From: Methylophaga sp. UBA3192
Lineage (GTDB): Bacteria; Pseudomonadota; Gammaproteobacteria; Nitrosococcales; Methylophagaceae
Length of the DNA: 64,000 bases
Strand: one strand, 5' to 3'
NCBI RefSeq assembly: GCF_002363955.1
Contig: NZ_DEXE01000008.1
The notes under the pieces were generated by a model, which was not told the DNA's origin, did no database searches, and saw nothing but the letters and a program-made list of their open reading frames with translations. The position numbers and the translations under genes are program-made. Below, one piece after another: positions 2,959 to 46,343 of the stretch (position 1 is the stretch's first letter; every line of letters begins with the position of its first letter).

Positions 2959-3077
2959 GTAGCGCTCAAATAATAGCGATTTTATGCAAAAAATGTCAAA
3001 CTCGAATACGTGCGAAAATTAGTTAAGTGAATGATATTAAAAGACTATCAAAGAATTTCAAGTTTAGGCCCATAATT

Positions 3078-3122
3078 CTCATAATCCCTTGGTCCCAGGT
3101 TCGAGTCCTGGTGGGCCCACCA
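3078..3122 (+). tRNA. 3' part only of a CAU-anticodon tRNA (anticodon loop to CCA). Not an intact gene; likely att-site remnant.
   Basis: From 3078: CTCATAA (anticodon loop), TCCCT, TGGTC, CCAGG-TTCGAGT-CCTGG (T arm), TGGGCCC, A, CCA. The required 5' anticodon-stem strand AGGGA and the D arm are absent upstream. Confidence 0.6.
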
Positions 3123-3130
3123 ATTAAATC

Positions 3131-3168
3131 AAAGCCTTAGCGTTAATTTTAGCGCTAAGGCTTTTTTA
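3131..3168. terminator. Rho-independent terminator hairpin
   Basis: AGCCTTAGCG, a 10-nt loop, then CGCTAAGGCT followed by TTTTTT. It directly follows the tRNA CCA end and overlaps the last codons of tpiA on the other strand. Confidence 0.6.
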
Positions 3169-4012
3169 TTGATTGGATGCTAATATGGCCGGGCTGGCAA
3201 GTGTAGGATTGAGTCGCGGCAAAGCAGATTTGAATAAATTGCTCAGCGTCGAGTGAGGCGCCACCGATAAGGCCTCCGTCAACATCTGCTTGGCAGAAGA
3301 TTGCTGCAGCATTATGGGCTTTAACGCTACCACCATAAATAATTCGAACAGTTTCACTGCTGGCTACATCATGTCTGGCAATTCGTTGGCGCATAAAGCT
3401 GTGTACACTCTGAGCCCATTCCGGGGTAGCGGATTTGCCGGAGCCGATAGCCCAGACAGGTTCATAGGCCAGCACAACATTGGCTAATGCTTTTGGACCT
3501 TTATGAGCAATTAAAACATCCAGTAAGCGAGCAATCACTTCTTCTGTTTTGCCTGACTCATAGTCATCTTCGGTTTCGCCAATACAGATAATCGGGGTGA
3601 GATCATTGTTGATTGCCTGGGCATACTTTTCAGCGACGATCTGATCTAAAACATACTGATCGAGTTCCAACTTTTCATACAGGCAACGACGTTCCGAGTG
3701 GCCAATTAAAACGTAGTGACAACCAAAGCCTTTAATCATTGAAGCCGAAATCTCACCGGTATAAGGCCCTTCATCGTAGGCTGAGACATTTTGGGTGCCC
3801 CATTGAAGTCTGGAACCGGACAGGACTTCCTGTGCTTCTCTGAGATACACCGATGGCGGAAACAGAGCGATATCTATTGGTAAAGCGTTCTCACTGCTGG
3901 ACAGGATGCTGTCGAGCATATGGGCGCTGTGTAAAATATTCTGGAGTAATGTTCGCGGGCTTTCGGTTGGATTGTTCATTTTCCAATTTCCGGCCACCAG
4001 TGGTTTACGCAT
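3155..4012 (-). CDS. tpiA: Triosephosphate isomerase
   Basis: Motifs MRKPLVAGNWKMN, IGHSERR, AYEPVWAIGSGKSATP and IIYGGSV. Confidence 0.9.
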   Translation of the reverse strand: MRKPLVAGNWKMNNPTESPRTLLQNILHSAHMLDSILSSSENALPIDIALFPPSVYLREAQEVLSGSRLQWGTQNVSAYDEGPYTGEISASMIKGFGCHYVLIGHSERRCLYEKLELDQYVLDQIVAEKYAQAINNDLTPIICIGETEDDYESGKTEEVIARLLDVLIAHKGPKALANVVLAYEPVWAIGSGKSATPEWAQSVHSFMRQRIARHDVASSETVRIIYGGSVKAHNAAAIFCQADVDGGLIGGASLDAEQFIQICFAATQSYTCQPGHISIQSIKKP

Positions 4013-10319: not shown

Positions 10320-10337
10320 GAACTTCTAGGGTGAGGT

Positions 10338-12461
10338 TTATCTAATTGCCTCTACCTGCACCAGGTTATCGGTAAAGGTGGGTGCATGCCCCATATCAAC
10401 AAACTCAGCTGAGCTGACGCAGTTTACCGTACCGTTATTTCGTTGCCGCCAGTACCCAAGGGTTGCTACAACAATTCCCGGGCCGACATCTTCAGTGATT
10501 TGTGCCTTGGCATCAAAACCACCCCGGTCGTTAAATACCCGAACAGTATCTCCCTGCTGGATCTGCCGCAGATCGGCATCTACAGCACTTATCATCACAA
10601 ACTGATCGCCTTGTGCTTTGAGTTTATTATCCATATTGGCGTAACAGGAATTCAAGAAGCCATGACTCTTCGGAGAAATGATATTCAGCGGGAAACGTTT
10701 AGCCAGTTCAGGATTAGACTGAGGCGTTTCTCTTGAAGCCACGTAGTCAGGTAGGCTATCCAGCGGTTCACCAGGTTGAAAGCCGTCATACATCTGTCTG
10801 AACGGGCCGGCAACAAAGTTGGTGGCATCATCAATACGGAAATGACATTTGCCGGAAGCTGTTGGAAAATTTCCGGCCTTATGTGGTGCCCGATTGTCTC
10901 TGGTACCCACATTAAGTCGTGCAAAACCATGTTCACGCAGATAGGCTAAATCAATGCCTTCACAGGCTGGAGAGTCCCAGTCCACATAGTTTTCCAGACA
11001 TTCACTATCGTTCCATTTGAAATTTTCTTCTTCATAGCCCATTTTGGCAGCAAGGCGGCGGAAGATTTCATTGTTCGGAATGGCTTCACCGGGCGAATCA
11101 ACACATTTTTCATTGTAGGTGAGATAGAGATGACCCCATGACAACACCATATCTTCCATTTCAGCACCCATTGATGCAGGCAAAACGATATCGGCAAATG
11201 AAGCGGTGTCAGATAGAAAATGTTCCGCCGATACCAGAAATAAATCTTCCCGCATGAGTCCCGCCACGATTTTGTCTGTTTCAGCCGCCTGAGTAACAGG
11301 ATTGGCATTCCAGCACATCATCGATTTGATCGGAATATCAAGATTCATTTCATTGGTTAAGGCCCGGCCAATCTGAATCGCATTAATCACCCGAGTGCCT
11401 TCCGGAATTAAATCGGGACGACAGATAACATCAAATTTATAGGGGTGTTCCCATACTGGGAATTGTAAAGCGCCACCCCCAACATGTCGCCATGCGCCGA
11501 CTAATGCCGGTAAGGAGCTGATAGCCCGAATGGCCTGACCTCCACCATAATTACGTTCCAAGGCAACCCCCAGACGAATGGCTGCAGGTTGAGTGGTGGC
11601 AAATTCGCGAGCAAGCTGTCGAATATCGTGAGCGCTTACTCCGGTAATATCTTCAGCCCATTCTGGTGTTCGTTGTTTAGCGCGTTCAGCCAGTTCGGCA
11701 TATCCAACAGTATAGTTATCTACATAATCCTGATCGACTAATCCTTCCTCAATGATGGTGTGCATCATTGCCATAGCAAGCGCACCATCAGTGCCCGGTT
11801 TGGGGGCAATATGCCAATCGGCTTCTTTGGCTGTTTTGGATTTGTAAGGATCAATAACAATGACTTTGGCACCGCGTTTCTGAGCATCTTTAACGATATG
11901 CCAGTGATGCAGATTAGTGCTGACGGAATTGCAGCCCCAGATAATGATGTATTTAGAATGAATAAAGCTTTCCGGATCCACGCCAGCAGTTGGACCAACG
12001 GTTAACAGCCAGGCGGTACACGAGCCTTCACCACAAAAGGTACGTTCACAAACGGTCGCGCCCATTTTATTAAAGAAAGCATCGCCGCCATTCAGGCCAT
12101 GAACCAGTCCCTGATTACCAAGATAACTATAAGGAATGATGGCCTGAGGCCCATATTCATCAATAATCGCTTTCCAGCGATCGGTGATTTCGGTGAGTGC
12201 TTCATCCCAGCTGATTTGTTCAAACTGGCCACTGCCCTTGGGGCCGGTTCGACGCATGGGATGTAAAACACGTTCGGGATGGTAATGACGTTTTTCGTAG
12301 TCTTTGAGTTTGACGCACAAGCCGCCACGGGTCATTGGATGGTCAGCATTACCCCGGACAGAGATTAACTGACCATTTTCAACTTCATAGACCATCGAAC
12401 AGGTATCAGGGCAATCATGTGGACAACCGCCGTGATGAGTGGTTTTCAATACACTGGCCAT
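10338..12461 (-). CDS. Cytoplasmic molybdopterin oxidoreductase (MopB superfamily) with N-terminal Fe-S Cys motif
   Basis: 707 aa. CPHDCPDTCSM cluster motif, no Tat signal, and typical IIWGCN and VIVIDPY segments. Substrate not inferable. Confidence 0.85.
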   Translation of the reverse strand: MASVLKTTHHGGCPHDCPDTCSMVYEVENGQLISVRGNADHPMTRGGLCVKLKDYEKRHYHPERVLHPMRRTGPKGSGQFEQISWDEALTEITDRWKAIIDEYGPQAIIPYSYLGNQGLVHGLNGGDAFFNKMGATVCERTFCGEGSCTAWLLTVGPTAGVDPESFIHSKYIIIWGCNSVSTNLHHWHIVKDAQKRGAKVIVIDPYKSKTAKEADWHIAPKPGTDGALAMAMMHTIIEEGLVDQDYVDNYTVGYAELAERAKQRTPEWAEDITGVSAHDIRQLAREFATTQPAAIRLGVALERNYGGGQAIRAISSLPALVGAWRHVGGGALQFPVWEHPYKFDVICRPDLIPEGTRVINAIQIGRALTNEMNLDIPIKSMMCWNANPVTQAAETDKIVAGLMREDLFLVSAEHFLSDTASFADIVLPASMGAEMEDMVLSWGHLYLTYNEKCVDSPGEAIPNNEIFRRLAAKMGYEEENFKWNDSECLENYVDWDSPACEGIDLAYLREHGFARLNVGTRDNRAPHKAGNFPTASGKCHFRIDDATNFVAGPFRQMYDGFQPGEPLDSLPDYVASRETPQSNPELAKRFPLNIISPKSHGFLNSCYANMDNKLKAQGDQFVMISAVDADLRQIQQGDTVRVFNDRGGFDAKAQITEDVGPGIVVATLGYWRQRNNGTVNCVSSAEFVDMGHAPTFTDNLVQVEAIR

Positions 12462-12641
12462 AACAATTTGCCTCCCGAAATCATCTGCAACAAGTTTTAT
12501 GACTATACACCAGTCTGGAACGGGAATTTTGCCCGCTATTTAGCCAAAATATAAAAATATATAACACTGTTTATACTCGGTTTTTTGGTCTTTATCCTGT
12601 GTTAATCAATCATTCATAGGAATATGTTAGCTTCACCCGAA

Positions 12642-13071
12642 GGCTTGTTGATCTTTCATAGCCACCACTGCTGGAGGCTATTTTTCCGTCCAACAAGGCG
12701 GAAATGATGCGATGTAGTGTTCTACATAATTCATTTCCAACGCCGTGGGGCGGAAAAAATAGTCCCAGCCCTGTGGGTTGTGGCTGAAAATGCAACACTT
12801 ATGTCCACGGATGGACTGTATGCCGGCGCGCCAGGGAGGCGCGCGCCGGCCTGTGTTGCTCGTCGTTTATTTAGAACGACTACAAAACCGCCGGGACAAG
12901 CAATGTTCCAGACATTGCTTTTGCATATACTCGATCCATGGAGATAAACGTTTTTGAGCGTCAGCCCCGAAGGGGTGAGATACACGGATGTATCTCACAA
13001 ACTACACTCCTCGCGCCTTGATTGGTGCATTTTCAGTCACAACAGAGGCGGTTATGAAAGATCAACAAGCC
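12642..13071. repeat. 430-bp TIR-bounded, hairpin-dense non-coding element (MITE-like element or large structured RNA)
   Basis: 19-bp perfect terminal inverted repeat (12642-12660 / 13053-13071). An 18-bp internal long-range helix and at least 8 local perfect stems. No credible ORF. See findings. Confidence 0.6.
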
Positions 13072-13145
13072 CTAGTTAATTTGACTTCTCTCGGCTTGGG
13101 TGTAGGCTCGCCGATCTGTTTGATAACAAAAAAAGGAGAAACAAC

Positions 13146-13640
13146 ATGGCAACCGTAACTTTGAAAGGCAATCCGTTTGAAACCGTTGGAAATCTGCCAA
13201 AAGTGGGTGACAAGGCTCCCGGCTTTTCAGTGGTAAAAGATGACCTGTCGGATTTGAATTTATCCGATCTGAATGGTCGAATTGTGCTGAATATTTTTCC
13301 ATCGATAGACACAGACACTTGTGCGATGTCAGTGCGTCAATTTAATCAAAAAGCCACAGCGCTTGATAACACCAAAGTTGTTTGTATTTCGAAAGATTTG
13401 CCTTTTGCTCTTGCCCGTTTTTGTGGTGCTGAAGGTCTTGATAATGTGGAGGTTGGCTCAGCATTTCGTTCCAGCTTTGGGGAAGACTATGGTGTGACAG
13501 CCAAAACCGGTCCGCTGAAAGGTTTGTTATCCCGTGCTGTTGTTGTTATCGATGAAAACGGAAAAGTCATCTATACCGAACAGGTTGCAGAAACCGCGGA
13601 TGAACCCGATTATGAAGCCGCCTTAAGTGCTTTAAACTAA
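13146..13640 (+). CDS. tpx: Thiol peroxidase
   Basis: 164 aa. Motifs [17 protein letters not shown] and FCGAEG. RBS AAGGAG. Confidence 0.93.
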
Positions 13641-44742: not shown

Positions 44743-44800
44743 ATCTATAGATGACTCCAGTCATCCGGCACTGGCATTGATAATGTCACAAAAGGAGATG

Positions 44801-45361
44801 TTAAGAATAGATGTTTTCTTCTGTAACAATAATATCCATGGGGATATCATGTGGCTGCGGCTGTATGGTTTCAAGTAACATCCATTCAAAGCCGATACCA
44901 ATGCTTAACGGTTTTGCCGAAACGTCCAGCGTACGATCATAAAATCCTCCACCGTTGCCTAAACGATGTAAATTTGCATCAAACCCCACTAGTGGAATAA
45001 GTAGCACGTCCGGTTGAATAACCTGCGTGTTTTGTGGCACAGGGATATCCCATACCTCAGCCTGCATGATAGATTCCGGACCCCATTGGCGGAATTGCAA
45101 GGCTTGTTGCGGGTCAATAATTTTTGGTAAAGCCGCTTGCCAACCCTGTTTGATAAGTCCGTATATAAAATCACGACAATCAATTTCGCCACGCACCGGC
45201 CAGTAAAAGCCAATGACGCCTTTAGGGAGAGTATCAATAACGCTTTGTAACTTTTTAAATAAGGCAACCTGATGTAAAACACGCAGCTCATTGGCAAACT
45301 CAAGCCGTTGCTCCGTCAAGCGTAACCTTTGTTCTATGCGCCATTGCTGCCAGGTATTCAT
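44801..45361 (-). CDS. 5-formyltetrahydrofolate cyclo-ligase
   Basis: 186 aa. Contains LIPLVGFDANLHRLGNGGGFYDR, typical of MTHFS. The start overlaps the upstream stop (ATGA). Confidence 0.85.
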   Translation of the reverse strand: MNTWQQWRIEQRLRLTEQRLEFANELRVLHQVALFKKLQSVIDTLPKGVIGFYWPVRGEIDCRDFIYGLIKQGWQAALPKIIDPQQALQFRQWGPESIMQAEVWDIPVPQNTQVIQPDVLLIPLVGFDANLHRLGNGGGFYDRTLDVSAKPLSIGIGFEWMLLETIQPQPHDIPMDIIVTEENIYS

Positions 45362-45851: not shown

Positions 45852-46218
45852 GTAAAATGCCTGTTTGTATAACAGTGTTTGGCAATAATGCCTGAAATTC
45901 TCAATATTATCCGTCAAACGGTGTTTTATGGATTTATAGAGCGTCATGTTGAGCTATTAAAAGACTGTTTATATAAAAATACGTTCCGTAATCAACCGGG
46001 AAGTAAACGTTTTATTCCTTCTCATCAGCAAACCGGTCCCCTGCAAACTATACGGCAACTTTCATTTGCACACCGTGATGTTGTGTTTATTGGGAGATTC
46101 AATCTGATTGTTACCCAGCATTGAAATAACGGTTATCACCGTTGTGTGATATTGCCGTTGGAGTCATTGAGGTGCGTACAGATCTTTACAGGATTTATGG
46201 TGAGTATTCTTAATTTAT

Positions 46219-46245
46219 AGAGGCGATGAAAAATAAACAAGCCCT
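46219..46245. repeat. Lone, diverged copy of the right terminal sequence of the 12642-13071 element
   Basis: AGAGGCG + ATGAAAAATAAACAAGCCCT compared with AGAGGCG(gtt)ATGAAAGATCAACAAGCCCT at 13044-13073. Identity is 7/7 plus 18/20, with a 3-nt gap. Confidence 0.45.
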
Positions 46246-46343
46246 GGGGATAATGCTTTTACTCGGGAATTCTCTGGCCGGCGTTAGCCAGATAACGAGG
46301 ATGATAGTTTGCGTCTTTCTCTGCGAGTAAATTTCTTTTGCAT

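Follow-up and report, generated by a model that had tools for sequence, protein, structure and literature searches.

The element at positions 12642-13071 of a 64,000-nucleotide stretch of Methylophaga sp. UBA3192 (contig NZ_DEXE01000008.1; the whole stretch is called the window here) is 430 bp long and lies between a molybdoenzyme gene and the divergent gene tpx. With a probability of about 0.85, it is a single copy of a miniature inverted-repeat transposable element (MITE), a non-autonomous mobile element which is dispersed in Methylophaga genomes and has ends of the type found in ISSpu10, an insertion sequence (IS) of the IS5 family. The element has terminal inverted repeats (TIRs) that are those of a known IS, TA at its ends and no coding capacity, and it belongs to a family of many dispersed copies for which both filled and empty sites are found. 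The first-pass annotation of this DNA had placed the element correctly between its two flanking genes, and had left a choice between a large structured RNA and a mobile element carrying a structured cargo. Of the second alternative, the mobile element is supported, by a dispersed, multi-copy, TA-flanked family with filled and empty sites and the TIR of ISSpu10. The same annotation had considered the element unlike a typical MITE. This part does not stand, as many TA-flanked copies were found, an outcome that it had itself named as the mark of a plain MITE. Its remark that the element is not one simple whole-length palindrome was accurate, since the fold is nested in several layers, and the element is unusual for a MITE in its size and in its layered palindromic interior.

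The left end of the element (12642-12660) is exactly the reverse complement of the right end (13053-13071), and together they form the perfect 19-bp terminal repeat that had been described. The 19-mer has a chance expectation of 0.02 in the window, where it is present at two places only, both of them element ends. The repeat is real, whereas the limits of the element need a small correction: comparison with the family shifts the ends one base outward on each side, and the MITE copy spans 12641-13072 (432 bp, + strand) in an end-to-end alignment with 41 other family copies. The copy is oriented with its CCACCACTGCTGG end on the left. The left TIR, (A)GGCTTGTTGATCTTTCATA, occupies 12641-12660 on the + strand; the family consensus is GGGCTTGTT[G/T]ATCTTTCAT, and 17 of its nucleotides are identical to the left end of ISSpu10. 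The right TIR, which reads TATGAAAGATCAACAAGCCC on the + strand, occupies 13053-13072 on the - strand and was located by inverted-repeat search and family comparison.

Metagenome contigs were scanned for the TIR with GGCTTGTTKATCTTTCATA as the query, and the copy counts refer to the matches listed. The scan returned at least 119 stretches, and when the window element was compared with those loci by BLAST, family matches of 70-98% identity were found in most of them, that is, at dozens of loci. Pairing of the TIR hits gave at least 70 bounded elements and at least 60 distinct complete copies of 53-654 bp, with filled and empty sites among them, which answers the copy count proposed by the first-pass annotation. 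Among the matches listed, the lengths have modes at 56, 80, 131, about 162, about 201 and 262/263 bp (the last with about 20 copies) and are scattered up to 636-654 bp, and nearly all copies are intergenic, at many sites of Methylophaga-like contigs. At least 12 loci belong to the single assembly Ga0207878, and four lie on one 1.16-Mb contig. The 64-kb window has only the one copy and one vestige. In viral contigs, scans for the TIR and for an internal, conserved 16-mer turned up chance matches only. On the Methylophaga frappieri IncP plasmid NC_017858.1 (locus L227, 2501-2740), a family copy breaks off after about 240 bp at G+C-rich foreign DNA; by way of such a conjugative plasmid, the family may pass from one host to another. 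In addition, a partial family copy (L200, 1763-2700; L172, 11487-11640) adjoins an open reading frame (ORF) resembling an IS3-family transposase ('..VRYAFIKANSLLWPVRRLCLLLDVHPSGYYQWLKAP..'), and a second type of IS may have been inserted into or beside the MITE there.

The copies read ..Y-TA-GGGCTTGTT[G/T]ATCTTTCAT ... ATGAAAGAT[C/A]AACAAGCCC-TA-R.., and nearly all of them are flanked on both sides by TA within YTAR, the left TA of the window copy being degenerate. All four combinations of the outer bases were seen (TTAG..CTAA, CTAG..CTAG, CTAG..CTAA, and TTAG..CTAG), and therefore the flank is a 2-bp TA in a YTAR context rather than a direct repeat of 4 bp. The same site can be compared in its filled and its empty state. 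A 56-bp copy in L196/L220 corresponds to an uninterrupted site in L147, L121, and L118, with a flank identity of 94%. Moreover, the site behind the stop codon of the molybdoenzyme gene, an intact and empty CTAG at 10326-10329 of the window, is filled in Methylophaga sp. EAC20 (L011), L211, and L127. The spacer between tpx and the molybdoenzyme gene of EAC20 is without the element, and a 78%-identical copy of the 5' part of the element lies at the other end of its molybdoenzyme gene, directly past the stop codon. The window has two further empty sites, one at about 44774-44801, where L200/L172 have family copies, and one at about 47990, where L172 has a family copy. A clean empty site for the insertion of the window copy itself was not obtained, as EAC20, the nearest species without the element, is too diverged in that intergenic region.

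The same sites have been used repeatedly. Two different subfamilies stand in tandem with one common TA in L147, while L196 and L121 each have one of them, and the copies in L126 and L148 occupy the same site in opposite orientation. CTAG occurs 31 times in the window against 244 expected from base composition, an under-representation of about 8-fold. This rarity fits the repeated use of the same sites, and it limits the targets open to the element family.

The connection to ISSpu10 comes from a plasmid search with a 54-nt terminal probe. The TIR end together with its CTAG flank, CTAGGGCTTGTTGATCTTTC, matches 20 of 20 nucleotides at the left end of ISSpu10 in 11 plasmid records, whose hosts are Vibrio, Salmonella, Shewanella, Citrobacter, and Leclercia. 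Two of these records were inspected, and in both a gene annotated as 'IS5-like element ISSpu10 family transposase' lies about 90 bp downstream of the match. ISSpu10 is 879 bp long, has CTAG on both sides and the ends GGGCTTGTTGATCTTTCG... and ...CAAAGATCAACAGGCCC, and encodes a product of 253 aa with DUF4096 and DDE_Tnp_1 domains. The protein family of this transposase comprises 2531 proteins at E <= 1e-40, and the named matches are mostly from aquatic gammaproteobacteria. Three relatives, with proteins 66-77% identical, reside in elements of 872-926 bp with TIRs GGG[C/T][C/T]TGTTGA[T/A]CTTT, and their flanks (cTA/tTA ... TAa/TAg) have mixed outer bases as in the MITE copies. The MITE thus has TIR, target, and flank in common with this IS clade. 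The terminal 17 nt (GGGCTTGTTGATCTTTC) and the TA within YTAR/CTAG flanks are common to the family, ISSpu10, and its relatives, and the TIR variants GGGCCTG.. and GGGTCTG.. are found in both MITE copies and IS relatives. In contrast, the IS elements have a single ORF for the transposase and a length of 872-926 bp, whereas the MITE has no transposase, a length of 53-654 bp, and an unrelated interior. An affiliation with IS630/Tc1, first suggested by the TA flanks, was dropped in view of the exact match of the TIR to the IS5-family ISSpu10. On the Vibrio cholerae IncC plasmid NZ_OW443149.1 (L229), ISSpu10 lies at 3003-3881 between msr(E)/mph(E) and mph(A), beside macrolide-resistance genes, and thus the IS type with the ends of the marine MITE also circulates on clinical resistance plasmids. 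The papers naming ISSpu10 that a literature search retrieved only list it in resistance plasmids.

The interior of the element consists of nested helices. The outer helix extends past the 19-bp repeat to 12642-12673/13040-13071, where 32 nt are paired at 88%, in agreement with the imperfect continuation reported before. The second long-range helix (helix B), known before as 12777-12794/13026-13043, was recovered with its single mismatch in the 18-nt core, a G-T pair on the + strand; it extends to 21 nt, 90% of them paired, with a 5' arm at 12777-12797 and a 3' arm at 13023-13043 (+ strand). Among the local stems listed earlier, those at 12822-12850, 12898-12920, and 12975-12998 were found again as perfect inverted repeats of 9-10 bp, and the others are visible in the minimum free energy (MFE) fold. 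This fold has one more long helix, absent from the earlier list, at about 12799-12826/12923-12951 (helix C). The RNA fold of the whole element on the + strand reaches -214.5 kcal/mol against -133.5 +/- 6.3 kcal/mol in shuffles (z = -12.85), and the interior alone (12798-13022, DNA parameters) has z = -6.05. As had been stated, only short, overlapping ORFs are present inside the element.

In alignments of 17 and of 42 oriented copies, the stems are seen to belong to family-specific modules, each of which a copy either has or lacks as a clean block. Among these blocks are one of 72 nt in hairpin A, helix C with the G+C-rich hairpin, mutually pairing blocks of 53 and 52 nt, a 47-nt block named M4, and the 3' hairpins. 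No reading frame is kept across the family indels of 72, 53, 47, and 52 nt. In the window copy, module A is a two-tier hairpin at 12676-12766 (+ strand), into whose 3' half the 72-nt block (M1) is inserted in other copies, and its stem has subfamily-specific double changes. Helix B has 96.8% of its cells paired across the family alignment. The helix C block, at 12799-12951 (+ strand), contains three hairpins, the G+C-rich one at 12822-12850 and those at 12862-12880 and 12898-12920, and is missing as a whole from the common 262-bp form. The two 3'-side hairpins, 12964-12976 and 12975-12998 (module 12964-12998, + strand), are found in some copies only. The longest copies (636-654 bp) hold all modules and have a nearly rod-like fold, which in L206 reaches -311.4 kcal/mol (z = -13.6), and the window copy has an intermediate module content. 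Some module junctions, read from the alignments, have the short direct repeats ACAA or ACAAAA, as expected for slippage across hairpins. Furthermore, L138 (56 bp) and L150 (198 bp) are identically oriented at one and the same site and have a common private TIR mutation (..GATCAGCAAGCC), which indicates that content was lost in place.

In the proposed mechanism, an ISSpu10-like DDE transposase supplied in trans would bind both TIRs of about 18 bp and would carry out the insertion at a TA within YTAR, typically CTAG, leaving TA on both sides. Deletions across hairpins are the simplest explanation for the loss of modules, and would produce the size series of 53-654 bp. The window copy, intermediate in form, was inserted immediately upstream of the core promoter of tpx and has decayed since then, as is seen in its degenerate left flank, several mismatched stems, and fast divergence. 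Its left flank at 12639-12640 is GA where the family has TA, and base 12641 is A where the family has G, giving the junction CGAA|GGC compared with CTAG|GGC. These changes suggest that the window copy is probably old and now immobile. The right flanking TA at 13073-13074 lies within CTAG, with TG in its place in the haplotype of L002/L009. From about 650 bp down to about 55 bp, the family forms a clear natural series in which one palindrome after another is lost.

Several observations weigh against the identification as an ISSpu10-type MITE or against parts of it. Searched by tblastn, about 1.9 Mb of fetched loci, of which about 0.9 Mb are Methylophaga-like, gave no match to the ISSpu10 transposase, and no transposase was found between any TIR pair examined. 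TIR pairs that are 0.7-3 kb apart and the surroundings of 40 unpaired TIRs contained housekeeping genes and one unrelated IS3-like ORF only. Of the 120 best homologues of the transposase none is labelled Methylophaga, and most carry no label. The similarity to ISSpu10 ends about 17 nt in from both ends, and the interior did not arise from that IS by deletion. Bacterial MITEs are described as smaller than 200 bp (PMC2229807), a size that the long forms of 430-654 bp exceed. A few subfamily-specific double changes keep stems paired, and there may be some constraint on the hairpins. As regards the target, the one clean empty site (L196 compared with L147) reads ..ACC|AAT.. and has no TA; it fits ends A...T without duplication one mutation better than a TA duplication, and the flanks deviate only at the outer base of the TA. 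The canonical sites are compatible alike with a TA duplication and with ends A...T inserted at YT^AR, whereas the non-canonical empty site slightly favours ends A...T.

The layered architecture, in which the outer TIR surrounds helices B and C, would also be expected from a nest of independent small MITEs, each inserted into the one before it, so that every long-range helix is a separate TIR pair. A Pseudoalteromonas MITE whose TIRs are different has a core 89-93% identical to the central core of this family (M4 and its neighbours), which points in the same direction. Such a nest is quite improbable, however, as the modules, with the exception of the central core, are confined to the neighbourhood of the family TIRs. 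In the roughly 0.9 Mb of Methylophaga-like loci, occurrences near and away from these TIRs number 58:1 for the helix B arm, 21:0 for helix C, and 44:0 and 21:0 for hairpins. Moreover, the module boundaries have no TA flanks, some of them having the ACAA and ACAAAA repeats typical of slippage deletions, and the order TIR, module A, helix B is kept in the EAC20 copy at 78% identity. The Pseudoalteromonas MITE belongs to replicon NZ_CP142031.1 of Pseudoalteromonas sp. CuT4-3 (L228, 247-1613), where it is about 130 bp long, flanked by TA/CTAG, has the TIR TAGGGGCGATAA.., and is split by an ISAs1 element that is flanked by the direct repeat GGGGCGATAA. At 1476-1613 of L228, it shares a central core of about 75 nt with the Methylophaga family at about 93% identity, as well as the TA/CTAG flanks, but it has another TIR, is much shorter, and is interrupted by ISAs1 in the copy inspected. 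This likeness hints that interiors are common to, or exchanged between, MITE families of different genera. It is unlikely, though conceivable, that the nested, rod-like interior is a selected structure (hairpin or cruciform DNA, or RNA, that aids mobilisation or survival) or a cargo module exchanged between MITE families. If this were true, MITE interiors would be a vehicle by which a structured nucleic-acid module spreads among marine gammaproteobacteria.

A large structured non-coding RNA under selection, in which the terminal stem closes the molecule, would explain the extreme z-score of the fold, but the - strand folds equally well (z = -12.55). The Rfam comparison proposed by the first-pass annotation gave no confident match to a known family, in line with the lack of known RNA signatures stated there: the whole window has zero matches at the gathering score, the region around the element has at E <= 10 scattered sub-threshold matches only, all far under their own gathering scores, and the 644-nt full-length form of the family has nothing at E <= 1. 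Pairs were counted on the MFE structure of the window copy across 42 copies with 500 shuffles, the RNAalifold consensus on the gappy alignment of the 42 sequences being uninformative for the interior. Paired cells amount to 88.0% compared with 87.0% in the shuffles, and therefore the conservation of pairing mostly reflects sequence similarity. Double changes that keep a pair do occur, such as CG to GC at columns 73/102 in seven copies and AU to UA at columns 235/641 in five. There are 17 pairs with a change on either side, compared with 13.8 +/- 2.0 in the shuffles, of which 36 of 500 reach the observed value, and the excess is not significant. The doubly changed cells (48 compared with 25) owe their excess to a few subfamily-founding events, one of which is a coordinated change in both TIRs that a shared transposase also explains. 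The G-T pair of helix B, legal on the + strand only, had been put forward as a sign of a + strand RNA, but no consistent bias was found: variants of the G-T and A-C types stand at 55:40 and 44:37, despite reference structures in which G-U is favoured. In 27 of 40 copies the + strand has the better fold, by 2.5 kcal/mol on average, which is a weak signal of strand asymmetry. Relative to neighbouring genes, 10 copies are co-oriented and 17 anti-oriented, which is not significant, and most copies do without whole helices. Two haplotypes of the window's species differ at 9 positions in the 430 bp of the element and at 18 in the 6065 bp outside it (Fisher p = 4e-5), that is, 2.1% and 0.3%, and the element has diverged about 7-fold faster. 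Adjacent non-coding DNA has 1 difference in 254, and its comparison with the element gives p = 0.10. At some of these differences, the stems of the window copy are worse than those of the other haplotype. In addition, the element lies upstream of the conserved -35/-10 region of tpx, as read from the sequence. A selected RNA structure at the element is not supported, and a structured RNA is a very unlikely explanation of it. The position of the element has also to be considered in terms of exaptation, in which it would be kept to insulate or regulate the divergent promoters of tpx and the molybdoenzyme gene. Its right end is 9 bp upstream of a -35-like TTGACT (13081-13086), it is 180 bp from the molybdoenzyme start, and it is present in every same-species contig that spans the site. 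On the other hand, EAC20 has the same gene pair without the element and conserves TTGACT and the DNA downstream, and therefore the insertion spared the likely core promoter of tpx. A consensus promoter scan of the element found no promoter-like site, the terminator scan found one terminator-like site, no more than in shuffles, and the fast divergence within the species adds to the case against exaptation, which is highly improbable. As a MITE copy, the element is most likely a largely neutral spacer at this locus.

The genes beside the element are a 707-aa molybdopterin oxidoreductase at 10338-12461 (- strand) and tpx at 13146-13640 (+ strand). By its Tpx protein, the closest named genome is Methylophaga sp. 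EAC20 (93% identity), other near matches are also from Methylophaga, and the contigs with an identical Tpx are from marine metagenomes. L001, L002, and L009 span the element, L001 with an N-gap inside it, while seven other contigs with identical Tpx stop 40-198 bp upstream of tpx, six of the seven within the element. Contig ends and N-gaps are expected at a repeat or palindrome, and the element accounts for the breaks and gaps of metagenome assemblies just upstream of tpx in this Methylophaga species. A 56-aa ORF at 12988-13158 (+ strand) is called in public assemblies and has no Pfam match. It starts inside the MITE, overlaps the start codon of tpx, and has ATGAAAGATCAACAAGCCC in frame from the right TIR read outward, and this gene call is probably spurious. 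Elsewhere in the window, 46218-46246 (+ strand, TAGAGGCG-ATGAAAAATAAACAAGCCCTGG) looks like the vestigial right end of a second family copy, for which no left partner was found. Here, TAGAGGCGATGAAAAATAAACAAGCCCTGG agrees with the family right end at about 26 of 29 positions, with a gap of 3 nt, and in the window scan 46225-46243 matches the TIR 19-mer at 16 of 19.

The MITE is an ordinary kind of genomic parasite and opens no new class of RNA or mobile element. A literature search found no paper describing Methylophaga MITEs or this TIR, and a MITE family in marine methylotrophs that is tied to ISSpu10-like IS5 elements is apparently undescribed. Among known systems, ERIC and Correia elements have size variants that are caused by internal blocks. 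The Methylophaga family resembles Correia/NEMIS, RUP, and ERIC in being non-coding, intergenic, and multi-copy, with TIRs, TA at both ends, a predicted fold into long stem-loops, and size variants by blocks. The TA-ended MITEs Correia/NEMIS of Neisseria, RUP of Streptococcus pneumoniae, and ERIC of enterobacteria are likewise described as non-coding elements with TIRs and predicted stem-loop folds (PMC2229807). In contrast to RUP, which is tied to IS630-Spn1, the Methylophaga family is tied to an IS5-family element. Moreover, its long forms (430-654 bp) are several times larger than Correia, RUP, and ERIC and have a multi-layer nested fold, whereas those elements form one stem-loop. With BIMEs/REP, which are mobilised by RAYT tyrosine transposases, the family has in common that short palindromic units form a mosaic in intergenic DNA. 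It differs from them in that no association with a RAYT was seen, its units never occur alone, and its copies have true TIRs and TA flanks.

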